A stretch of DNA of 64,000 nt, from positions 287-64,286 of the forward strand of contig WGFJ01000140.1 in assembly GCA_015492305.1 (NCBI GenBank), written 5' to 3'. Source of the stretch: Deltaproteobacteria bacterium. GTDB taxonomy: Bacteria; Desulfobacterota; GWC2-55-46; S146-80. Within the stretch, counting starts at the first letter, position 1, and each line of letters begins with the position of its first letter. Of the stretch, positions 1,978-22,291 are shown one piece after another. The notes below the pieces were generated by a model. It saw only the letters and a list, made by a program, of their open reading frames with translations, searched no databases and was not told where the DNA came from. The position numbers and the translations under genes are program-made.

Positions 1978-3662
1978 CGGGTAAGTCCCAGTTCCTTTTT
2001 GACCGCCTCGATCTTCTTCAGGACCTCATCCCTCTTCTCGAGGTCGTAGGACCTCTCATAGAGTTCCAGGGCCTTCTCCTTCATGCTCTTCTTGTAGTAA
2101 GCATCTCCAAGGTGTTCGGTTATGATGGGATCGTCAGGGGTATAACGGACAGCCTTCTCAAGGAGTTCTATGGCCTTCTCGTAGTTGCCCTTCTTGAAGT
2201 AGACCCAGCCAAGGCTGTCGATGATGTAACCACTGTTTGGCTTTATCTCCAGGGCCTTCTTTATCAACCTCTCTGCCTCATCAAGGAGGATACCCTTCTC
2301 CGCATAGGTGTAGCCAAGGTAGTTGAGGGCCTCCGCAAAGTCAGGTTTGAGGCTTATGCTCTTTTTCATCGCCTCTATCATCTTCTCGTCTTCGTCAAGG
2401 TCGTCGTAGAGGACACCCAGGGTAAAGTAAAGGTAGGGGTCATCGGGGTGGAGGGAAAGGGCCCTCTTGATACTCTCTATACCCTCCCTGATCCTCCCCG
2501 CCTCCTTGTAGACATTGGCAAGGATCCTGTAGACATCCACATTCTTTGTCTTCTTCGCAACCCCCTCAAAGTAGCTTATGGCCTCGTCAAGCATCCCCAT
2601 CTCCTTATAGATCATGGCTATCTGCAAGAGGGCATCCCTGTAAACAGGTGATGATGGGGGGATGGGCTTCAATACCTCAAGGGCCTTCTCATACTCACCC
2701 TTCTGGCTGTAGGCCACTCCAAGATAGTACCTCACCTCATGGGCCTGGGGATCTGCTGCAAGGGCAAGGTTGAACTGGGTTATGGCCTCATCCACCTTCC
2801 CCTGTTCCATGTATATGAGGCCTATCTTCACCATGGCGTCGACCTTGTTGCTGCCGAAGCGCTCAAGCTCCCTGTACTCCTTTATGGCCTCCTCGTACCT
2901 CTTCTCCCTTATGAGGAGCTGACCCAGCCTGCGGCGGAGGTTTTCATTGCCAGGCCTCAGCTGGAGCGCCCTCTTGTAGGCCTCTATGGCCTTATCCCTC
3001 TTGTTCATAAACTCATAGACAAGGCCAAGGTCTATCAGGGCACCGTAGAAGTCGGGGTGATACTCAAGGGCCTTGAGCAGATACTCTTCGGCCTTCTTGT
3101 AGTCGCCCTTGTCCGCATAGGCCCTTCCAAGGTAGTAATGGGCCATGACAGAATCGGGCTTTCTCTCCTTGTATTTGAGGAGGATCTCAATGGCCTTGTC
3201 ATACTCCTTGAGATCGCTGTAGAGGGCAGAGAGGAGTATGTAGGCCTTCTCGTTATCCGGATCGAGCTGGAGGACCTTCTTATACTCCTCTATGGCATCC
3301 CTTGTCCTCTTCTGGGCCGTATAGAGATCGCCAAGGAGGAGGTGGGCCTTACTGTAATCCTCGTGTTCAAGTGCCTCCTTGAGTTCCTTGATGGCCTCCT
3401 CTATCAGCCCCTTCCTCAGGTAGAGGGAGGCAAGCTCTGTGTGGAGGAGGGCAGAGAAGGGATCGGCCTTGAGGGCCTTCTTATACTCGGCGATGGCCTT
3501 GTCTATCTTCCCTTCTTTCAGGTAGAGCTGGGCTATGGCGTAGTGCTCATAGGGGTTACCACTCCTTGAAAAGAAGGAGAAGGCCCTGGCTTGAGAAAGG
3601 GGAAAAAAGAAAAGGGATAGGGTTATGATTGCAATAAAAAAGGACTTCCTATATATTAACAT
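1974..3662 (-). CDS. tetratricopeptide (TPR) repeat protein with N-terminal signal/anchor
   Basis: About 15 tandem 34-aa repeats with the A/L/Y/G/P pattern (…AxxxYxxALxxDP…). Hydrophobic N-terminus. Confidence 0.85.
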   Translation of the reverse strand: MLIYRKSFFIAIITLSLFFFPLSQARAFSFFSRSGNPYEHYAIAQLYLKEGKIDKAIAEYKKALKADPFSALLHTELASLYLRKGLIEEAIKELKEALEHEDYSKAHLLLGDLYTAQKRTRDAIEEYKKVLQLDPDNEKAYILLSALYSDLKEYDKAIEILLKYKERKPDSVMAHYYLGRAYADKGDYKKAEEYLLKALEYHPDFYGALIDLGLVYEFMNKRDKAIEAYKRALQLRPGNENLRRRLGQLLIREKRYEEAIKEYRELERFGSNKVDAMVKIGLIYMEQGKVDEAITQFNLALAADPQAHEVRYYLGVAYSQKGEYEKALEVLKPIPPSSPVYRDALLQIAMIYKEMGMLDEAISYFEGVAKKTKNVDVYRILANVYKEAGRIREGIESIKRALSLHPDDPYLYFTLGVLYDDLDEDEKMIEAMKKSISLKPDFAEALNYLGYTYAEKGILLDEAERLIKKALEIKPNSGYIIDSLGWVYFKKGNYEKAIELLEKAVRYTPDDPIITEHLGDAYYKKSMKEKALELYERSYDLEKRDEVLKKIEAVKKELGLTR

Positions 3663-3715
3663 GGCCTTAAAAATTAAGATATCACAGCCCCTCTGCGGAG
3701 GTCAACCTCTAAGTT

Positions 3716-4900
3716 ATGGAAACCCTGACGGCATTGCTCCTCATAGCCATCATCTCCTATGTGAGTAACAGGATCACCCCTGTCCTTGTGAGGCTCCCCA
3801 TAGGGGCCCAGCATGTCCTGTTTACAGGCACAGAATACCTCTTTCTCGGACTCCTCCTCGGTCCTTATCTGATAGGCTTTTTGTCGAAGGAGGTCCTTGA
3901 CCAACTCAGACCCTTTGTCAGTCTTGCCCTGGGTTGGATCGGACTCCTCTACGGTCTCCAGTTCAACTGGCGGGACATAAGGACCTTTCCCCTCATCTAC
4001 ATGCCCATAGCCTTCCTCCAGGCCCTGATAACCATGGGTATAGTCTTCATTGTCTTCTACCCTGTACTCGGTTATCTCCTTGGAGGGAACAGGCTCCTCT
4101 ATCCCCTTCTCATTGCCCTTTCCGCATCGGCCTCCCTCACCTCACCCTCTGCAATTGCGGTCCTTCACAGGAGGGTGGAGATAAAGGAAAGGGACCTCGT
4201 CACCCTTGTCAGGTACATATCCGGCATAGATAGCCTGATAGGTATAACCATCTTCGGCCTCACCTTTGCCATCTTCCACATCACCTACGGCTACAACCAG
4301 GGACTCCTACCACTGGAGTGGTTCCTGCTCACCATCGGCCTATCCCTCTTCCTTGCCATGATCTTTAACCTCTGCCTGCTCCTCCCTTTAACGAGCAATG
4401 AGTTTCTCGCTGTAACAACGGGGATGGTGGTATTCTCCAGCGGTGTGGCCTCCTTCCTCTACCTCTCTCCCCTCTTTGTGAGCATGGTCATGGGCCTCAT
4501 CATCGCGAATACCTCTTCAAAGCGTGAGATCCTCTATGAGAACCTGGTGAGGGGAGAAAGGCCCTTCTACATCATCTTCGTGATCATAGTTGGAGGGCTA
4601 TGGACTGTCGAGCCCCTCTGGGGAGGCATAGGGGCCCTCATATACACCCTTGCCAGGGTGGCCGGGAAGTACCTTGGAGGGATATACGCTACCGCGATCT
4701 TCAAACCCCCCTTTCCCATACCCAGAGACCTTGGCCTTGCCCTGCTCTCCCAGGGAGGGGTTGCCATTGCCATAGCAGCAAGCCTCCAGCAGACATACCA
4801 GACCACCCTCACGCCCACAGTAATGACCATCATCCTCACAGGGGTCATCATAAACGAATTCCTCGGTCCCAGATACCTTATGAAGGTCCTGAGCAAATGA
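3716..4900 (+). CDS. cation:proton antiporter (Na+/H+ exchanger family)
   Basis: Polytopic membrane protein of about 12 TM segments with a CPA-family layout. Confidence 0.6.
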   Translation: METLTALLLIAIISYVSNRITPVLVRLPIGAQHVLFTGTEYLFLGLLLGPYLIGFLSKEVLDQLRPFVSLALGWIGLLYGLQFNWRDIRTFPLIYMPIAFLQALITMGIVFIVFYPVLGYLLGGNRLLYPLLIALSASASLTSPSAIAVLHRRVEIKERDLVTLVRYISGIDSLIGITIFGLTFAIFHITYGYNQGLLPLEWFLLTIGLSLFLAMIFNLCLLLPLTSNEFLAVTTGMVVFSSGVASFLYLSPLFVSMVMGLIIANTSSKREILYENLVRGERPFYIIFVIIVGGLWTVEPLWGGIGALIYTLARVAGKYLGGIYATAIFKPPFPIPRDLGLALLSQGGVAIAIAASLQQTYQTTLTPTVMTIILTGVIINEFLGPRYLMKVLSK

Positions 4901-6198
4901 AGATGGGAAGGGTCTTTATACTCATCATCCTCTTCCTCTCCATGTTCATGCTCCTCAGATTCTTCGAAAAGGGGCTTGTCAACGAGGAGGCCCTGCCCAC
5001 ACTGTCCCTTGGCTTCGTGCTGGTCTCTGCCTTCCTCTTCGGAAAGACGGTGAAGGACTACAGCCTTCCCATGGTCACCGGCTATCTGATCCTTGGTATC
5101 CTCTCAGGCCCATATGTGATGAACCTCATCTCCCATGAAACAACACAGGCCCTCAGGCTGATAGACGAGATCGCCCTGAGCCTCATAGCCCTCACAGCCG
5201 GGGGTGAATTGAGGATGAAGGAGATGAGGAACCTGTGGAAACCCCTCTTTTACATCTCCCTTGTCCTTACAGGGGTGGTTACAGCAGGGATCGCCATCTT
5301 TACCTTCCTCTTTCTCTACCTCAAGCCACTCCCCGGTGCCGAGGGTCTTCTGGTCAACCTGTTCATAGGGCTCATACTCGGGATATGGGCTGTGAACAGC
5401 TCTCCAGACATCACCATCGGGGTGATCACAGAATACAGGGCAAAGGGAAAGTTGACGGAAACCATCCTTGGTGTCACCATCCTGAAGGATATACTGGTCA
5501 TAGCCCTCTTCACCATACTCCTTTCCTTCGGTCAGAACCTCTTTACCCCTGAGAGGGGAAGCGAACCTGTCTTCCCCCTCCTGGCCAGAAAGATCCTGGG
5601 TTCCTTCCTTGCAGGGACAGGCTTTGGATGGCTGATGGCCATGTACCTCAAGAGGGTAGGTAAGGAGGTTACCCTCTTTCTCGTGGGCTCAGCCCTCTTT
5701 ATTACATCCTTTTCCCACTCCTATGGCCTGGAACCCATCCTTGTGGCCGTTGCTGCAGGCTTCTTTGTGGAGAACTTCTCAGAGGAGGGGGAATCCTTCA
5801 TAAAGGCCGTTGAAAGGGGATCCCTGCCCATCTATGCCATCTTCTTTGCCATAGCAGGGGCCTCCCTTGATATAGAGGGTTTCAGGAGGATGTGGCTTAT
5901 AGGGGCCGTGTTTGCGGCCCTCAGGGTCCTCACCATCTATGTGGGAAGCAGATTCGGGGCCTCACTAGCTGAAGCGGAAAAGGAGATAGGCCATTACACC
6001 TGGCTTGGCCTCATCTCCCAGGCAGGGGTGACCCTTGGACTTGCCATCATGGTGGAAAGGAGGTTTCCCCTGTGGGGGATGGGGTTCAAGGAGCTTGCCC
6101 TTGCCATCATCGTCTTCAACCTCCTTCTGGGTCCCTTCACCCTCCAGTATGCCCTTAAGAGGGCAGGGGAGATAGAAGGGGGTCAGCCCTCAAGATAG
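4897..6198 (+). CDS. cation:proton antiporter (Na+/H+ exchanger family), second tandem copy
   Basis: ATG at 4897 overlaps the previous stop (ATGA). Membrane protein of about 433 aa with a CPA-like layout. The ORF-track N-terminal extension from 4600 lies inside the previous gene and was discarded. Confidence 0.6.
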   Translation: MKMGRVFILIILFLSMFMLLRFFEKGLVNEEALPTLSLGFVLVSAFLFGKTVKDYSLPMVTGYLILGILSGPYVMNLISHETTQALRLIDEIALSLIALTAGGELRMKEMRNLWKPLFYISLVLTGVVTAGIAIFTFLFLYLKPLPGAEGLLVNLFIGLILGIWAVNSSPDITIGVITEYRAKGKLTETILGVTILKDILVIALFTILLSFGQNLFTPERGSEPVFPLLARKILGSFLAGTGFGWLMAMYLKRVGKEVTLFLVGSALFITSFSHSYGLEPILVAVAAGFFVENFSEEGESFIKAVERGSLPIYAIFFAIAGASLDIEGFRRMWLIGAVFAALRVLTIYVGSRFGASLAEAEKEIGHYTWLGLISQAGVTLGLAIMVERRFPLWGMGFKELALAIIVFNLLLGPFTLQYALKRAGEIEGGQPSR

Positions 6199-15606: not shown

Positions 15607-16509
15607 CTATCTAATTTGTGGCACGATCCACTTTCCATCTATGCGACAGGCAAGACCGTAGTATCTCCCTTTTATATCCCCTGAGGTGACGGTCTGGCGG
15701 TACCTGCGGCAGTAGAGGCCACCCTTTGTCCTGAAGGTACCGAGAGACACCACCTCTCCAGACACGCCACTATCAGGATCGGCCCACCTCACTGGCACAC
15801 CACTTCTGTTGAACTCAAGGGCCCTCTGAAAGCTGTCATCCATAAGTCTCACTGCCTGTTGAGGGAGACTGTCACGGGGTGGAAGGACTGCAAGGAGTTC
15901 CACCCGTCTTTCAGGCTTCCTCTTCACATTCCTGATAAACACCACATAGTGTCCCACCTCCGGGACGTAGTACCAGGTTCGTATCTCCCGTAACCTGTAT
16001 CTCCTGTTAAACCTCTTGCACTCGATCTTCCATGCATTGAAGTCTCCTATAAGTACAGATATACGCTCCCCACCAATCACCCTACAGAACCAGTACCTGT
16101 AGTAAGGCCTTTCAGGTCCATCAAGCTCCCGCCACCGTCCTTTTTCAAGGAAGTTAAAGGACCTGCCAGGATACAGAGGCCAGAGAGAGTCTGATCCATC
16201 TTTGCCGAAGACACCTGGAAGGGGAGAGAAGGACCTCCTGCCCTCTCTTTTCCTTGTCTTCCAGGATGAAGCAGGCAGTATGAAATCCCTTGATCCCCTG
16301 TAGATCTTTCCACGGTGATTCACCCAGAAGACCTCTCCTCCCCTTACCTCTGTAACCCTTTCCCATCCTCCATTGGAGTATAGATAGGTAGTGCCTTTGA
16401 CATAAAGGGGAAGGTCCGGTCCCTGGAGATCAGGCCTTACACCCTGTATCCCCCCAATACAGCCTGGAAGTACAGCTATCAGCAGAAGGAGAATTACGAT
16501 ACGACCCAT
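15607..16509 (-). CDS. lipoprotein with C-terminal 17-kDa-surface-antigen-like domain
   Basis: Lipobox LPGC. C-terminus …GTFRTKGGLYCRRYRQTV…GRYYGLACRIDGKWIV carries the YCRxY / ACRxxDGxW motif pattern I recognise from 17-kDa surface-antigen (COG4520-type) domains. Confidence 0.6.
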   Translation of the reverse strand: MGRIVILLLLIAVLPGCIGGIQGVRPDLQGPDLPLYVKGTTYLYSNGGWERVTEVRGGEVFWVNHRGKIYRGSRDFILPASSWKTRKREGRRSFSPLPGVFGKDGSDSLWPLYPGRSFNFLEKGRWRELDGPERPYYRYWFCRVIGGERISVLIGDFNAWKIECKRFNRRYRLREIRTWYYVPEVGHYVVFIRNVKRKPERRVELLAVLPPRDSLPQQAVRLMDDSFQRALEFNRSGVPVRWADPDSGVSGEVVSLGTFRTKGGLYCRRYRQTVTSGDIKGRYYGLACRIDGKWIVPQIR

Positions 16510-16523
16510 CGATCAAACCCCTC

Positions 16524-17159
16524 CTACATGTTTTTGTCCACATCTCCAAAGAGTATCATCCTGGTCCTCCACCGCCCTTCAGGGGTCCTGTATGCAAGTC
16601 CATACACCTCCTGCCTACCCCTCCCATGGACCACCTCTATCCGATACTGTCGATAGTAACGTCCCTCCCTGTCCCGGTAGGTCTTTACAGGGGTAACAAC
16701 GACCCTGTAACCATTCCTCTGTGGTGTCCAGACCATGGACTTGCCACTTACATTAAACTCGAGGACCTCATTCACCACATCATCCAGTTCAGTCTGGAAG
16801 GGCAGAGAGAGCGCCGGTTGCCTCACCCTTTCCCTGTCCAGTAACAGGCCTGCCCCAAACCCAAGGATTACCATCACAATCCCTGCAGCGATCCTGATCA
16901 GTCCCGATCTGAGACCGTTCTTCCCACTTTCTACCCTGTGGGACCTTATCCCATCCACCACCTCTTCCGGCACCTCTTCTTCATTCAAAAGCCTCTTCAT
17001 GCTGGCCTTCAGCCTTGCATTCACACATACCGCCTCAAGAAAGCGGGCCCGCACCTCTCCATCCCTTCTCAGGGCCTCTTCAACCTCATCCATCTCCTGA
17101 GGCTCCAGCTCCCCATCGATATAGGCTGAAAGCCTGATCTCATCGACCCTCCTATTCAT
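16524..17159 (-). CDS. anti-sigma factor (single TM) with periplasmic 17-kDa-antigen-like domain
   Basis: N-terminal anti-sigma domain (LSAYIDGELEPQEMDEVEEAL), one TM segment, and a C-terminal domain (…YYRQYRIEVVHGRGRQEVYGLAYRTPEGRWRT) homologous to the C-terminus of the downstream lipoprotein. Overlaps the ECF sigma stop. Confidence 0.7.
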   Translation of the reverse strand: MNRRVDEIRLSAYIDGELEPQEMDEVEEALRRDGEVRARFLEAVCVNARLKASMKRLLNEEEVPEEVVDGIRSHRVESGKNGLRSGLIRIAAGIVMVILGFGAGLLLDRERVRQPALSLPFQTELDDVVNEVLEFNVSGKSMVWTPQRNGYRVVVTPVKTYRDREGRYYRQYRIEVVHGRGRQEVYGLAYRTPEGRWRTRMILFGDVDKNM

Positions 17160-17724
17160 CGTTGCACACCTCCTCAGCAGCCCTGTAACTCCTGGCCCTT
17201 AGGTTGCCGTAAAACAGATCGGCCAGCATCTTTCTGGCCCTCGCAACACGGCTTGCCACAGTTCCTGCTGGTATGCCAAGGATATCTGCAGTCTCTGCGT
17301 AGGAGTATCCCTCCACACATACCAGCATGATGACCACCCTGTGTTCCTCCGGAAGAAGTCCAAAGGCCTTCCTGATATCCAGGGATATATCTATCGGGAC
17401 CTCCCTCCTCTTCCTCTCCATGCCTGCTTCGTAGATGGCATTCCTGTTGTAAAGGTTCTGGGTCCTTGTCCTGCGGAGCCCATCGAGCCAGCAGGTATAG
17501 AGGATCCTGAAGACCCAGCCATCGAAGTTCGTGCCATCCTTGAACTGATCGAAACGGCTGAGGACCTTCTCACAGGCCATCTGAACCAGTTCATCTGCCC
17601 TTTCCCCATCCTTGGCGATACCCATGGCAAAGCGCCGCAGGCGCGGAAGGAGGTCAACAAGCCTGTCCTTGAGCATCTCCTTCCGCACTTTGCCATCCAT
17701 GGAGGGTCCCCCCTGTGACCTCAC
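17152..17724 (-). CDS. RNA polymerase ECF-type sigma-70 factor
   Basis: Sigma-70 region 2 and region 4 motifs (…FDGWVFRILYTCWLD…; LPEEHRVVIMLVCVEGYSYAETADILGIPAGTVASR). Confidence 0.9.
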   Translation of the reverse strand: MRSQGGPSMDGKVRKEMLKDRLVDLLPRLRRFAMGIAKDGERADELVQMACEKVLSRFDQFKDGTNFDGWVFRILYTCWLDGLRRTRTQNLYNRNAIYEAGMERKRREVPIDISLDIRKAFGLLPEEHRVVIMLVCVEGYSYAETADILGIPAGTVASRVARARKMLADLFYGNLRARSYRAAEEVCNDE

Positions 17725-18443
17725 CGGATCCCACCCGGGGCCTGACCGGAAGGTGAGGTGCCTGTAGTCCCTTCTGTTGAACCACCACCTGTTGAACCGG
17801 TTGCACCACCTCCAGTCTGATCAGAGGCGGTTCCGGATGAACCCCAGTTGCCGACAAGTCCAGCCTCCTCGGCAGCCGAGACTGGAGAGAGATCACCGAT
17901 ACCACCTATCCCAATACCTACAGAACCGGGACCACTACCCTGACCCATGGAGTGGCTCTCATCATCGTTGTGGCTACCTCTGGATGAGCTATGGTCATCC
18001 GAGTCGTGCCCCTCATCACTTGAATGATCGTCATCTTCACCCTCATTGTGGTCATCTCCAGAGTGATCATCGTCCTCACCATCGTGGCCTGAACTGTCAT
18101 CGCTGCCATCACCATCGTCATCGCCATCGCTACTGCCGTCGTCATCCCCAGAGCCGCCATCACCACTATCACCATCATCACCACTGCTGTCACCATCGCC
18201 GCTATCACCGTCACCGCCGCCATCACCGTCACCATCCCCACCATCGCCGCCTCCGTCTCCCCCACCATCTCCATCTCCACCATCATCCGCCATGGTTACA
18301 GACTTGGACCATCCCATCTTCTTTGCATCGAAGTGGTATGGAAAGGCAATGATTGCAAGGGCGTAAAAGAACACAAGGAAGGTAAAAACCATCCTCTGGA
18401 CCGGGCCCCTGCAGCTGGCAAAGAGTTCTCTCAACCATGTCAT
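17721..18443 (-). CDS. membrane-anchored low-complexity acidic protein (Asp/Gly/Ser/His-rich), possible metal-binding protein
   Basis: One N-terminal TM helix followed by about 200 aa of D/G/S repeats and an H-D-E-rich block (HDGEDDDHSGDDHNEGEDDDHSSDEGHDSDDH). Same strand as its neighbours and its stop overlaps the ECF sigma start. The alternative frames of the repeat tract give implausible H/R-rich or M/V/T-rich ORFs. Confidence 0.45.
   Translation of the reverse strand: MTWLRELFASCRGPVQRMVFTFLVFFYALAIIAFPYHFDAKKMGWSKSVTMADDGGDGDGGGDGGGDGGDGDGDGGGDGDSGDGDSSGDDGDSGDGGSGDDDGSSDGDDDGDGSDDSSGHDGEDDDHSGDDHNEGEDDDHSSDEGHDSDDHSSSRGSHNDDESHSMGQGSGPGSVGIGIGGIGDLSPVSAAEEAGLVGNWGSSGTASDQTGGGATGSTGGGSTEGTTGTSPSGQAPGGIR
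17990..18290. repeat. imperfect GAT/GGT/GGC-type triplet-repeat tract (coding microsatellite)
   Basis: About 300 bp of 3-nt periodic low-complexity DNA that gives rise to the D/G-rich protein and to the spurious overlapping ORFs on both strands. Confidence 0.7.
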
Positions 18444-18538
18444 GGCTCAAACCTCCTTCCTCAAAGTCTCCTCTCACCCTTTATAACGATCCAGAGGGGT
18501 ATTTTCTTCCACCCTTATCGGAGCCCCTTCACAATCCT

Positions 18539-19633
18539 TTAACCCTGCCGATGCCTGTACCACACATTGCAGGTCCCATCGAAGGATACCATGCAGGGCC
18601 CATAAGGGGTTTGGGGGGTGCACCTCCTGCCAAAGAGGGGGCAGGAGGGAGGATCTATCTTGCCTATCATGATGAGGTGGCAGGAACAGCCAGGGTTGAG
18701 ATCAAGGGAAGGCTCTCTCAAATCGATGGAGAAGCGCTTCCTTGCATCGATCCTGTCATATTCACCCTTCAAGATAAGCCCTGACCTTGGAAGCCTTCCT
18801 ATCCCCCTCCAGTAGGCATCCGAAACGGTGAAGACCTCCGCCATTGCCTCCTTTGCCTTCCTGTTGCCAGCCTCCTTTACAGCCCTCCTGTATGCGTTCT
18901 CACACAGGGCCTTACCATCCTTTATCTGCCTTCCTATCATGAGGATCGCCGTAAGCACATCAACAGGCTCAAAACCTGCCGACACAACAGGCATCCCGTA
19001 TGCCTCTGGGAAGATCCGGTACTCCTCAAGGCCCATCACGGTGGTCACATGACCGGGGATGATGAACCCGTCTATCCTTATATCACCCACACCAAGGAGG
19101 AACTCCATGGCAGGGGGGATGAGTCTGTGGGACACGAGGAAACTCAGGTTCCTGGGCACCCCCTGAAGGATCATGGCCGCCACCCCGCAGGCGGTGGTCT
19201 CGAAACCAACGGAAAAGAAGACCACCTCCTCTGTGGGATTCCTCTCCGCAAGCTGGAGGGCATCGAAGGGGCTGTAAACGATCCTCACATCCCCGCCCCT
19301 TGCCTTTGCATCCAGGAGGGAACCGGAAGGGGTTGGTATCCTCACCATGTCCCCAAAGGTGGCGAGGATCACCCCCTTTTCAAGGGAGAGCCTCATGGCC
19401 ATCTCTATGTCCTCCACAGGGCAGACACAGACAGGGCATCCAGGCCCTGCTATCACCCTGATGGTCGAGGGAAGGAGTTCTCTCAGGCCAAAACGGGCTA
19501 TACTGTTCTCATGGGTCCCGCAGACATGCATGATCCTTATGGACCTTGGCATGGAGAGGGACCTCAGGGCTTCAACAACCCTTTCCACAAGGGCGCTATC
19601 TCTGAAAGGCTCAACAACCCCCATGGTCTTCAA
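18539..19633 (-). CDS. hypD: [NiFe]-hydrogenase maturation factor HypD
   Basis: HypD hallmark motifs MHVCGTHE and GPGCPVCV, plus C-terminal Cys motifs. 364 aa. Confidence 0.9.
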   Translation of the reverse strand: MKTMGVVEPFRDSALVERVVEALRSLSMPRSIRIMHVCGTHENSIARFGLRELLPSTIRVIAGPGCPVCVCPVEDIEMAMRLSLEKGVILATFGDMVRIPTPSGSLLDAKARGGDVRIVYSPFDALQLAERNPTEEVVFFSVGFETTACGVAAMILQGVPRNLSFLVSHRLIPPAMEFLLGVGDIRIDGFIIPGHVTTVMGLEEYRIFPEAYGMPVVSAGFEPVDVLTAILMIGRQIKDGKALCENAYRRAVKEAGNRKAKEAMAEVFTVSDAYWRGIGRLPRSGLILKGEYDRIDARKRFSIDLREPSLDLNPGCSCHLIMIGKIDPPSCPLFGRRCTPQTPYGPCMVSFDGTCNVWYRHRQG

Positions 19634-21503
19634 GGATGGTGGGATCCGGTATCCGCACAGGTCTTATCCCCTCGAGGTCTCCCTCAAGCCCCTCAGGGAT
19701 GTCAAAGCTGCTCCTCACAAGGGAAGGCAGATCTGGAGGAAGGGAAGAGGTTGCCTTCCTGAAAAGCTCTGCATAGAGGGAAAGTTTCTTCCTCCTCCCG
19801 GAAGGGGTATCGTTGTGGCGCATCGTGAGCCTCGGGATCATGTAAAGGGCCTCTTCAAGGGTATGGGCCACATAGAGGAGGCTCGAGGGATGGGTGGTAA
19901 CCTCAAGGGTCTCATCGAGACGGGCATCCCTTATGAGGGACACCTCCTCACCCTCGAACCTTACACCGTATCCCCTTCCCCTTGGCCCGAGAAGCACCGG
20001 GATGCCAAGCCTCATGGCACCGAACAGTGTGGCAAGGGCCTTCTGGGTGAAGCCACCCCACAGGACCAGAAGGGCCCCGACCCTGTTCAATATGTAGTCG
20101 GCTATCCCCCTGTAGTTCCCCTCGATAGGGCGATGGGAGACCACAGAGGCTATCTTTATGCAGGCACCGATGAAGTGGGAGGCAGAAAGGCAGGAACCGA
20201 GGTTCACCAGATTGCCGGCATCGAAATCATCCCCATGGGCCTGGAAGAGAGGGCTACCCTTGCCTATCTCTATGGCCGAACACCCCCCTGTTGCCACCAC
20301 AAAACCCATGGAGAGGAGTTCCCTTGCAAGCCTCTGGATATCCGATGGGTCCTCTTCAGGACAGCCGAAGAGCCCAACAAGTCCCGGTATCTCGCCCATC
20401 ACTATGGAAGGGGCTATCCCCCTTATCTCCCCATCCCTCACAGGGCCTCTGCCTATCCTCAAGATCCCCCTTTCTCCTTCCATCTTCTTACTGTCGAAGC
20501 TGGAGGCAACTATGAGAGAGACCTCTGCCGCCTTTCCTTTATGGAAGATGACCCCCTTCCCCTCAAGGGATAGTCTTTCTGCTGCCTCTTCCGGTGACAG
20601 TGGAGTGAGGTCCTTGAGGCCAAGGACGGTCTCCTGGGCCGTTGCGATGACGGGTATACCCATCCTGCCAGCCGTCTCCACCACATCTGGCCTGATACAC
20701 TGGGTATCGAGGATCACAAGGTCCGCTATACCGGAGGCAACTATGGGTATCTGATCCGCCTGGTTCCCTATGATCCTGAGGCCGTGGTGGTGGCGGGAGA
20801 GATCATGGGCTGCACAGCAAAGCCCCCCGACATCGATCTTCCCCTCAAGGCCCCTCTCCTTCAAGAGCCTCAGGATCTCAACACCCACATGGGAGTTGTG
20901 GCCTATGACAAGGATAAGGGGCCTCCCTTTCCCTCCTATACCAGCAAGGGGGGAGTTGGATTCACCCCTTGGCATACCAAGGGCAGAGATCTGGATCACA
21001 TCACCCACCTCAAGGGCAAGGTTGTCAAGCATACCTGCATGGAGGGCCTTGCTCACAAAGTCAAGAAGCTCCCCTTCCCCACCGTAGTGGATCGATGAGA
21101 GCAGGTGTGCCAGCTCTTCCTCTATGTAGTCTATTATGGCCTCAACCTCACCTGCCCTCTCCGGTCTCGCACCTGTGATGAGGGTGCAGAGGGGGGTCCT
21201 GATGCCACTTTTCCCCATGTCTATAGAAAAGTCCCCGAACCTCTCGGTAAGGTCCCTGAAAACCCTCCTTGCAAGGGAGGTATGTCCTGAAAGACCGATA
21301 ACCACTTGGAGGAGAAGAGCCCTTCCCAGAAAGCCCTCCCTCTTGATACCGCACCTGCCCTTTCCCCCTTCTTTGAAGCTGCATGGACCAAGGGCACAGA
21401 GGGTACAGACCTTCGATGGAAGGGAGAGGTGGGGTTTGTATGTCCTGAGTAGCCTCAGATCCCAGCTTCTAAGGGTGGAGATGTCGGGAAGGCCAGAGAT
21501 CAT
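19611..21503 (-). CDS. Ni-CODH/HCP-superfamily protein, CooS-like (carbon-monoxide dehydrogenase catalytic-subunit family)
   Basis: N-terminal C-x2-C-x4-GPC-x9-CG motif (CTLCALGPC…GRCG) as in CooS B/D-cluster ligands. Later GHN…GLCCAAHDL…DTQCIRP…GGC…GSC blocks align with CooS C-cluster ligand positions. 630 aa. The 3' end overlaps hypD by 23 bp. Confidence 0.55.
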   Translation of the reverse strand: MISGLPDISTLRSWDLRLLRTYKPHLSLPSKVCTLCALGPCSFKEGGKGRCGIKREGFLGRALLLQVVIGLSGHTSLARRVFRDLTERFGDFSIDMGKSGIRTPLCTLITGARPERAGEVEAIIDYIEEELAHLLSSIHYGGEGELLDFVSKALHAGMLDNLALEVGDVIQISALGMPRGESNSPLAGIGGKGRPLILVIGHNSHVGVEILRLLKERGLEGKIDVGGLCCAAHDLSRHHHGLRIIGNQADQIPIVASGIADLVILDTQCIRPDVVETAGRMGIPVIATAQETVLGLKDLTPLSPEEAAERLSLEGKGVIFHKGKAAEVSLIVASSFDSKKMEGERGILRIGRGPVRDGEIRGIAPSIVMGEIPGLVGLFGCPEEDPSDIQRLARELLSMGFVVATGGCSAIEIGKGSPLFQAHGDDFDAGNLVNLGSCLSASHFIGACIKIASVVSHRPIEGNYRGIADYILNRVGALLVLWGGFTQKALATLFGAMRLGIPVLLGPRGRGYGVRFEGEEVSLIRDARLDETLEVTTHPSSLLYVAHTLEEALYMIPRLTMRHNDTPSGRRKKLSLYAELFRKATSSLPPDLPSLVRSSFDIPEGLEGDLEGIRPVRIPDPTILEDHGGC

Positions 21504-21614: not shown

Positions 21615-22013
21615 ATGCGAAGGATAACCGAAAGATGGCTAAAGCAGGCAGAGGCAGACCTTTCTGCAGCAATGGATAGCCTTGAAGATGGGCATTATGA
21701 GTGGTGCTGTTTTCAAGCACAGCAATCAGCAGAAAAGGCCCTGAAGGCCTTTTTATACGAACATGGCTATACATCAGTAATCACCCATTCTTTAAAGGAA
21801 CTTATAAGGGAGTGCTCGAAGATAGAAGGAGGCCTTTCCTCTCTTTCTACAGAGGCAAGGAAACTTGATATGTTCTACATTCCCACAAGGTATCCTAACG
21901 GTCTGGGTGGAGACCTTGCTCCAGTTGAATTTTATGAAGAGGAAGATGCAAGGGAATGCCTAAGCTATGCAGAATCGATATTGAAAGAAGTGAAGAAGTA
22001 CTTGAAGAGTTGA
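21615..22013 (+). CDS. HEPN domain protein (putative toxin/RNase component)
   Basis: HEPN-like helical protein of 132 aa paired with a downstream nucleotidyltransferase. Lies in a local AT-rich islet. Confidence 0.6.
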   Translation: MRRITERWLKQAEADLSAAMDSLEDGHYEWCCFQAQQSAEKALKAFLYEHGYTSVITHSLKELIRECSKIEGGLSSLSTEARKLDMFYIPTRYPNGLGGDLAPVEFYEEEDARECLSYAESILKEVKKYLKS

Positions 22014-22291
22014 AAGGGTTCATCAATAAACTGAAGGAAACCCTCCCAGTGGATGAGGTCTATCTATACGGTTCTTTTGCAAAGGGCCAGGTCCATGAAG
22101 GCAGTGACATTGATCTCATAATAGTGGGTAACTTTCGAGAGAGATTCTTTGAGAGGATAGGAAGGATACTCGACATGACAGATCTGCCTGTAGAACCCCT
22201 TGTCTATACCCATGAAGAGTTTCAAAGGATGAAGGATGAAGGGAATCCCTTTATCAAAGAAGTGCTGAAAGAAGCGAAAAAACTTCTGTAG
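21956..22291 (+). CDS. nucleotidyltransferase (MNT) domain protein, partner of HEPN
   Basis: Pol-beta-like nucleotidyltransferase motif GSFAKG…SDIDL. An alternative TTG start at 22010 would give a 4-bp TTGA overlap with the HEPN stop. Confidence 0.65.
   Translation: MPKLCRIDIERSEEVLEELKGFINKLKETLPVDEVYLYGSFAKGQVHEGSDIDLIIVGNFRERFFERIGRILDMTDLPVEPLVYTHEEFQRMKDEGNPFIKEVLKEAKKLL

Follow-up and report, generated by a model that had tools for sequence, protein, structure and literature searches.

The window analysed here is a stretch of 64,000 nucleotides from contig WGFJ01000140.1 of a Deltaproteobacteria bacterium, and the element in question is an open reading frame (ORF) on its minus strand, 17721..18443 in the ORF listing of the window, which encodes an acidic protein of 240 amino acids (aa) plus the stop. 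This is a real gene. Its two ends are conserved in homologues, it always lies beside a module consisting of an extracytoplasmic function (ECF) sigma factor, an anti-sigma factor and a lipoprotein, and its middle is disordered by prediction and hypervariable. The first-pass annotation of this DNA had described a low-complexity tract of Asp, Gly, Ser and His (D/G/S/H) here, behind a single transmembrane (TM) anchor and followed by a His-Asp-Glu block. Tract and block are both found in this ORF as described, and the minus-strand frame has proved to be a genuine single-TM gene, with an AGGAGG ribosome-binding site and with N- and C-termini kept in about 35 homologues.

The acidic protein and its reading frame

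The gene is the first of the ECF sigma operon, as judged from the ORF listing, the public gene calls and the homologues. Its ribosome-binding site, at 18452..18457 (on the minus strand, like all features of the gene), was read from the sequence 8 nt 5' of the ATG. Residues 14-33 (18345..18404) form a TM helix or signal anchor, modelled as a helix by AlphaFold2 (AF2) with a predicted local distance difference test (pLDDT) score of 78-88. They are followed by a juxtamembrane segment, FPYHFDAKKMGWSKSVTMA, residues 34-52 (18288..18344), in which our alignments A4 and A6 show no variation at P35 and A52 and very little at Y36 and D39, and whose terminal Ala stands in an AxA-like context. Then come the (DG)n/(DGS)n low-complexity tract, residues 53-119 (18087..18287), predicted to be disordered with a pLDDT of ~50; an H/D/E/S block with 8 His, residues 120-164 (17952..18086), whose translation contains HDGEDDDHSGDDHNEGEDDDHSSDEGHDSDDH exactly as quoted earlier; a Gly-rich stretch; a C-terminal motif, DLSPVSAAEEAGLVGNWG, residues 184-201 (17841..17894), which its conservation marks as a putative docking peptide; and a G/S/T-rich tail of 39 aa, residues 202-240 (17724..17840), that is present only in the copy of this organism. 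Over its ~130 aa the whole tract is 33% G, 32% D, 17% S and 6% H, and the mature part of the protein, 188 residues with the same 8 His, carries a net charge of about -50. The AF2 monomer consists of the TM helix, a short beta-hairpin predicted at low confidence (residues 36-47) and a 4-residue helix in the motif, while the remainder stays at a pLDDT of ~50. Library scans found no Pfam (E<=0.01) and no NCBIfam match for the protein. An identical 240-aa protein has been called as a gene on 4 public contigs; the 3 that were retrieved (L001-L003) are nucleotide-identical across the acidic gene, probably come from one sample and so are probably not independent.

Long ORFs cross the tract in three frames (besides the gene, 17777..18352 on the plus strand and 17918..18286 on the minus strand), as they might if the gene were only an artefact of a stop-free low-complexity tract or if the product came from another frame. 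Such an explanation is scarcely credible: the minus-strand D/G frame alone joins the conserved anchor to the conserved motif, through ~35 homologues with very different tracts; it is preceded by the ribosome-binding site and by a conserved promoter (see below); and an indel between strains in one of the homologues is in frame. The ORFs in the other frames are stop-free by-products of the kind expected of a low-complexity tract, and none is conserved in the homologues.

Throughout the family Lys and Arg residues are more numerous on the N-terminal flank of the anchor (mean 3.2) than on the C-terminal flank (mean 1.9), which favours an N-in orientation. We infer that the N-terminal helix is an inner-membrane anchor that leaves the tract on the outer side, or else that signal peptidase cuts after the invariant Ala. 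If the helix were a cleavable signal peptide and not an inner-membrane tether, the released polypeptide, or a fragment bearing LVGNWG, could act as a ligand that diffuses or is directed to the outer membrane, or could activate a protease, as the C-termini of outer-membrane proteins do with DegS. All members do have the invariant Ala directly before the tract, and position -3 is small or aliphatic (in the alignments A, L, V, T or I, giving contexts such as AHA, AIA, AFA, LLA and TMA), and in every member other than that of the window the motif lies 1-19 residues from the C-terminus. The site, however, is ~17 residues past the hydrophobic core, an unusual distance for signal peptidase I; the motif stops short of the extreme C-terminus, the window copy continuing for 40 aa after the conserved Trp (that is, 39 residues after the motif) against 1-19 aa in 34 other members; and the PYxFD segment is conserved, suggesting that it is part of the mature protein. 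We consider a processed signal of this kind quite improbable.

A family with conserved ends and a variable middle

A search with the whole protein was dominated by D/G words, and its 8000 candidates yielded 2 distant homologues, both of which have the anchor, the D/G tract and the C-terminal motif in common with the window copy. Further members were added with a profile in which anchor and motif had been spliced together (A4) and with an exhaustive HMMER search (full-length alignment A6); most of the 229 matches in the A6 search cover only the TM and D/G part and were not counted, since members must also cover the C-terminal motif. About 35 homologues keep both anchor and motif, and the representative proteins searched, 1.84 billion in number, yielded ~30 full-length clusters. 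A metagenome scan with the lipoprotein as query gave 63 loci, and a scan of genome collections with the anti-sigma alignment gave distant relatives only, L006 and L007 among them. The members come mainly from marine and estuarine sediment metagenomes, and none has a name or a Pfam domain in any source, or an NCBIfam match. The L007 locus, from a Haliea metagenome-assembled genome (MAG), encodes at 3613..5385 (-) a divergent 591-aa protein in which acidic E/V/S/T repeats are fused to a subtilisin-like S8 protease; it adjoins an ECF sigma/anti-sigma pair with a related anti-sigma factor, and it was set aside as having a different kind of acidic repeat.

Conservation falls into three blocks (13-35 sequences): the anchor with PYxFD...A, the variable tract, and the LVGNWG motif. 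The family consensus has Pro-aromatic-x-Phe-Asp directly after the anchor and the invariant Ala, in its AxA-like context, directly before the tract. The C-terminal motif has the consensus (L/V)SP(V/M)(S/T)xxEEAx(L/V)(V/I/L)GxW, or LSPVSxxEEAxLVGNWG around the window copy; L185, E193, A194, L196, V197, G198, N199, W200 and G201 are invariant across 13 sequences, and distant members have the forms LIGNWG, VVGNWD, LLGKWG and LVGRWA. Between these ends the tract is a fast-evolving disordered linker, usually polyanionic, of 46-130 aa (201 aa in L006). Over 35 members its Asp content ranges over 5-68%, Gly over 3-53% and His over 0-12%, and the tract types include (DG)n, (DDG)n, up to ~70 consecutive Asp, (DSDH)n, (GHGE)n, poly-Gly and a DRER repeat. 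His-bearing second halves like the H/D/E/S block of the window are seen in many homologues, though not in all, and no His position is conserved across the family in the alignments. In L006 the gene (4349..5200 (-)) has a poly-Gly run of ~35 residues followed by DH-rich repeats and a degenerate motif, LSRAEEAAAMAHGW.

The chain itself might be the functional part of the protein. It would then be an effector, a sigma-induced periplasmic polyanion that buffers cations (Ca2+, Mg2+, Fe2+, or Ni/Zn/Co through Asp and His) or shields the envelope, with the anchor and motif only positioning it, and in function it would be comparable to the disordered periplasmic metal sponges SilE and PcoE. The net charge is negative in 34/35 members, reaching -76; His makes up >=5% of the tract in 13/35, and some (DSDH)n or (GHGE)n stretches resemble metal-ligand arrays; and the (DG)n runs hold DxDxDG-like strings. 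The composition, however, is not kept, being poly-Gly with 9% Asp in L006, 5% Asp in P0036 and a net positive linker in P0141, with His at <=1% in 10/35, and what the family does conserve strictly is a short peptide motif of the sort that typically mediates protein docking. With composition and length varying and the motif invariant, the pattern argues for a tether rather than for specific chemistry. An effector role is the main rival to the docking tether set out below, though we think it somewhat unlikely, also in view of the gene context described in the next section.

At the DNA level, Tandem Repeats Finder places arrays that overlap one another at 18105..18287; their periods, 6, 9, 12, 15, 18 and 33, are all multiples of 3, as expected of coding low complexity, and the GC skew drops to -0.50 across the tract. 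The repeat is a degenerate one, in which perfect tandem repetition extends to no more than 2.5 copies of a 6-mer or 1.67 copies of an 18-mer, and the codons are mixed (GAT 29 and GAC 13; GGT 22, GGC 11, GGA 5 and GGG 5), as are the GAT and GAC codons of the poly-Asp tracts in the homologues. Simple-sequence contingency loci have long perfect repeats of many identical units, and the tract of the window is without them. The family is nevertheless variable in length. Between L020 and L021 there are 12 substitutions in 10.1 kb and a single internal indel, which is 15 nt long, in frame (DDGDD) and inside the tract; the poly-Asp length also differs among L044, L045 and L048. The hotspot of length variation that had been expected at this place therefore has a counterpart within the family, but the case for it is weaker in the organism of the window, where the repeat is imperfect and the three assemblies, probably of one sample, are identical. 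The closest related species, P0018, whose lipoprotein is 79% identical, is represented by a contig that stops short of the acidic gene. Slippage and unequal exchange in such a degenerate triplet repeat may cause a fast drift of tract length and composition between lineages.

The ECF module, its putative promoter and the partner proteins

The sigma factor (17152..17700 (-), 182 aa from an ATG at 17700 that lies 20 nt past the stop of the acidic gene) has a public gene call, matches Pfam Sigma70_r2 and Sigma70_r4_2, and scores 82 bits against the NCBIfam model of the sigma70-ECF superfamily, TIGR02937 (cut-off 42.9). The gene for the anti-sigma factor (16524..17159 (-)) overlaps the sigma stop; by its Pfam matches the protein has a zf-HC2 N-terminus (23.9 bits, cut-off 22.2), then a TM segment, and a basic periplasmic part of pI (isoelectric point) 9.8 with a 17kDa_Anti_2-like domain (a weak match), and it is 44% identical to its L004 orthologue. 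The fourth gene (15607..16509 (-)) encodes a basic lipoprotein with the lipobox LPGC, a net charge of +23 and a pI of 10.2, made up of a beta-barrel-like N-domain and a 17kDa_Anti_2 C-domain.

In all ~23 loci with enough flanking DNA the acidic gene adjoins an ECF sigma factor, a zf-HC2 anti-sigma factor and a strongly basic lipoprotein. It lies directly upstream and co-directional in L004, L016, L018, L020/21, L023, L025, L027, L028, L044-48, L053, L060, L065 and L072, which is every locus holding sigma factor, anti-sigma factor and lipoprotein together with upstream DNA. The distant members L082, L083 and L084/85 have the same cassette, and in two more, L006 (an alphaproteobacterial MAG) and L087 (5001..5582 (+)), the acidic gene is adjacent yet divergent to the module. 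Within the loci examined it was never seen apart from the sigma/anti-sigma pair, unlike the lipoprotein, which has stand-alone paralogues, and no metal transporter or efflux gene recurs in the neighbourhoods; both observations speak against the effector role considered above.

Upstream of the acidic gene the window has hypD (18539..19633), a CdhA-like Prismane protein, hypC, hypA, hycI and a [NiFe] hydrogenase. The 95 nt that separate the hypD stop (18539) from the acidic ATG (18443) contain, on the minus strand, the conserved motif GGAAGAA-N15-CGTTAT (18483..18510), a putative ECF-type promoter with its -35 element at 18505..18510 and its -10 at 18483..18488; a GGA-rich -35, a 16-nt spacer and a CGTT -10 make up the layout of ECF promoters. 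GGAWRAA-N15-CGTTAT has a single exact match in the 64-kb window, with 0.11 expected by chance even if one mismatch is allowed. In 14 distinct loci this motif, with the consensus gGGA(a/t)AAAAA...ttGAA.CGTTAT, stands 23-65 nt before the start codon of the homologous gene, and L081, L083 and L084 have it too; it was not found upstream of the gene in L006 or L087. A scan for sigma-70 promoters and terminators gave none above shuffled expectation. With an ECF-type promoter in this spacer, the acidic gene probably heads its own transcription unit, separate from the hyp genes. Some public gene calls for homologues begin 5' of or across the promoter motif (L004 2440..2532, L081 225..353); these are probably over-extended at the N-terminus, and the true start of such homologues is likely to be the Met just before the TM helix.

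These data bear on the suggestion of the first-pass annotation that the protein buffers nickel next to hypD. As a store resembling a His-rich HypB N-terminus or Hpn, it would supply [NiFe]-hydrogenase maturation and replace a missing HypB, and the setting is tempting: 95 nt separate the gene from hypD upstream of it, the cluster includes hycI, hypA, hypC and a [NiFe] hydrogenase, there are 8 His within the acidic block, and, as had been stated, the window has no hypB signature. Signatures of hypE and hypF are likewise absent from the window, however, so that the hyp genes are dispersed in this genome and the missing hypB is uninformative. The adjacency to hypD is confined to the contigs of this organism (L001-L003), while >20 other loci keep the ECF module and have unrelated genes upstream (a sigma-54 response regulator, Hsp33, cytochromes); L004, for example, has the same four-gene cassette with a sigma-54 two-component system in place of the hyp genes. 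The acidic gene has its own conserved ECF-type promoter, its tract is predicted to be extracytoplasmic whereas Hyp-mediated nickel insertion (HypA/HypB) is cytoplasmic, and its His content, 6% here, falls to nothing in many members; nor does the protein have a GTPase or other Pfam domain. A nickel store is thus very improbable.

In related loci the motif occurs once upstream of the acidic gene, and there are additional copies before other genes (L044 221-248, L045 1011-1038, L048 2271-2298, L065 2791-2818, L056 1066-1093, L077 5149-5176 and L084 433-460). These precede extra 17kDa_Anti_2-like genes of ~160 aa, which lie upstream of the acidic gene, stand-alone lipoprotein paralogues and one 311-aa gene, and suggest a small regulon of periplasmic beta-rich proteins. 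That the acidic gene sits behind a presumed sigma-dependent promoter, like other genes of such a regulon, is also what would be expected of an effector.

The lipoprotein was modelled with a pLDDT of 84.6 as an all-beta, barrel-like N-domain and a helix/beta C-domain. In structure comparison the N-domain is similar to LolA/YmcC-like lipoproteins and, to a lesser degree, to the sigma-E regulators MucB and RseB. The idea that the lipoprotein is a Cys/His protease, raised by its conserved C142 and H187, was ruled out by the all-beta barrel-like fold and the lack of protease matches. Its C-domain and the periplasmic domain of the anti-sigma factor are paralogous (reciprocal phmmer matches of ~1e-9), which means that the operon encodes the same small basic domain twice. 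Across the loci the lipoprotein has a net charge of +8 to +34 and a pI of 9.3-11.3, the anti-sigma periplasmic domain is mildly basic with a pI of about 9-10, and the acidic protein has a net charge of -42 to -76.

A possible docking tether and its relatives

We give about an even chance to the reading that the acidic protein is an accessory component of the ECF sigma/anti-sigma/lipoprotein envelope module, a docking tether that modulates sigma release. The tract would be a flexible, negatively charged tether or spacer, which may bind cations, and the C-terminal peptide LSPVSxxEEAxLVGNWG would dock on an operon partner, either the basic periplasmic domain of the anti-sigma factor or the paralogous domain of the lipoprotein. 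Docking might then modulate the release of the sigma factor, as CnrX does with CnrY or RseB with RseA. The promoter resembles one used by the sigma factor itself, which would make the module autoregulated. The charges of the acidic protein and of both candidate partners are complementary in sign, as would suit docking.

Several points weigh against this. Loci with a more negative tract do not have a correspondingly more positive lipoprotein (n=13, Spearman -0.13, p=0.67). The motif also stands before stand-alone lipoprotein paralogues (L056, L077) and 17kDa-like genes, so that the acidic gene could be a mere product of the regulon, and the promoter is assigned by its conservation and its likeness to ECF promoters. 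The topology and the cleavage are predictions, and the AxA-like site is farther from the hydrophobic core than in typical signal peptides. Nearly all members, moreover, are from metagenomic contigs, the exception being the uncultured alphaproteobacterial MAG of L006.

A bolder version, which we hold to be unlikely, would make the protein a third-component class not described before, a tethered polyelectrolyte: extension or collapse of the chain, under the influence of divalent cations, metals, ionic strength, pH or periplasmic width, would set the reach of LVGNWG to the basic domains and so the activity of the sigma factor, and slippage in the tract would shift the set-point from lineage to lineage.

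ECF modules with accessory proteins are known, though this accessory family is not described in Pfam, NCBIfam or the literature searched, where nothing relevant was found on Asp-rich or low-complexity ECF partners or on 17kDa_Anti_2. In CnrYXH and NccYXH of Cupriavidus metallidurans, one autoregulated operon encodes an ECF sigma factor (CnrH), a single-pass anti-sigma factor (CnrY) and an additional single-pass membrane protein that reaches into the periplasm (CnrX); the operon of the window likewise has such an extra gene, which here too precedes the sigma gene. The membrane-anchored, periplasmic CnrX modulates its anti-sigma factor by periplasmic contact (PMC6851896). CnrX, whose helical sensor domain is of the heavy-metal-resistance type in Pfam, folds into a dimer of four-helix bundles and binds metal at a defined His/Glu/Met site, whereas the acidic protein is predicted to be disordered and has a short motif and no conserved metal ligands; the operon of the window also differs in its zf-HC2 anti-sigma factor with a 17kDa_Anti_2-like domain, in having a lipoprotein as fourth gene, and in having no efflux genes. 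RseA/RseB (MucA/MucB) is, with CnrYXH, the closest functional analogue, but the sigma factor of the window is not an RpoE orthologue, all NCBIfam equivalog scores being far below the cut-off, the structural likeness is weak and generic to beta-barrel lipoproteins, and the sigma-E system is not known to have an acidic disordered partner.

Other likenesses concern the tract. HypB N-termini, Hpn and Hpn-like proteins and the SlyD tail share with it a low-complexity mixture of His and acidic residues and, in one organism, a place near hyp genes, but HypB N-termini and Hpn require tens of percent His and are cytoplasmic, while the acidic protein has 6% His and is extracytoplasmic by prediction, without a GTPase or chaperone domain and without conserved hyp synteny. 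SilE and PcoE are disordered periplasmic metal sponges with Met/His motifs and two-component control, and Aspein/Asprich and calsequestrin-type proteins are Asp-rich polyanions that bind mineral or calcium. With these the acidic protein would have in common a disordered secreted or periplasmic chain rich in potential cation ligands, with no sequence relationship; in the acidic family it is the anchor and docking motif that are conserved and not the composition. The poly-Asp and (DG)n runs likewise recall eukaryotic biomineralisation proteins. RTX calcium-binding repeats are similarly Gly/Asp-rich and repetitive, but the tract has no GGxGxDxUx periodicity, no hydrophobic or aliphatic positions and no HemolysinCabind match, and it is predicted to be disordered and not to form a beta-roll.

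ECF sigma/anti-sigma pairs are the most numerous bacterial envelope-signalling devices, and for most groups the input signal is not known. Here a previously unannotated family is the obligate companion of one ECF module, and its conserved partners and promoter make it directly testable. If the tract does sense, it would be a rare case of a bacterial low-complexity region as signalling input; if it is a cation sponge, it would be a new periplasmic buffering protein. A tempting annotation as a nickel store, based on adjacency alone, is removed in either case.

Two further observations concern the hyp cluster itself. Between hypC and hypD lies a gene (19611..21503 (-)) for a 630-aa CdhA-like protein of the Prismane/carbon monoxide dehydrogenase (CODH)-alpha type, whose stop overlaps the hypD start; it matches TIGR00314 at 1.9e-163, though with a score below the cut-off and with about half of the model covered. 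A CODH-like gene translationally coupled to hypD in an anaerobe is intriguing, since it is not settled where anaerobes obtain the CO ligand of their [NiFe] hydrogenases. On the opposite strand, between hypC and the CdhA-like gene, there is also a HEPN/nucleotidyltransferase pair, at 21615..22013 (+) and 21956..22291 (+).

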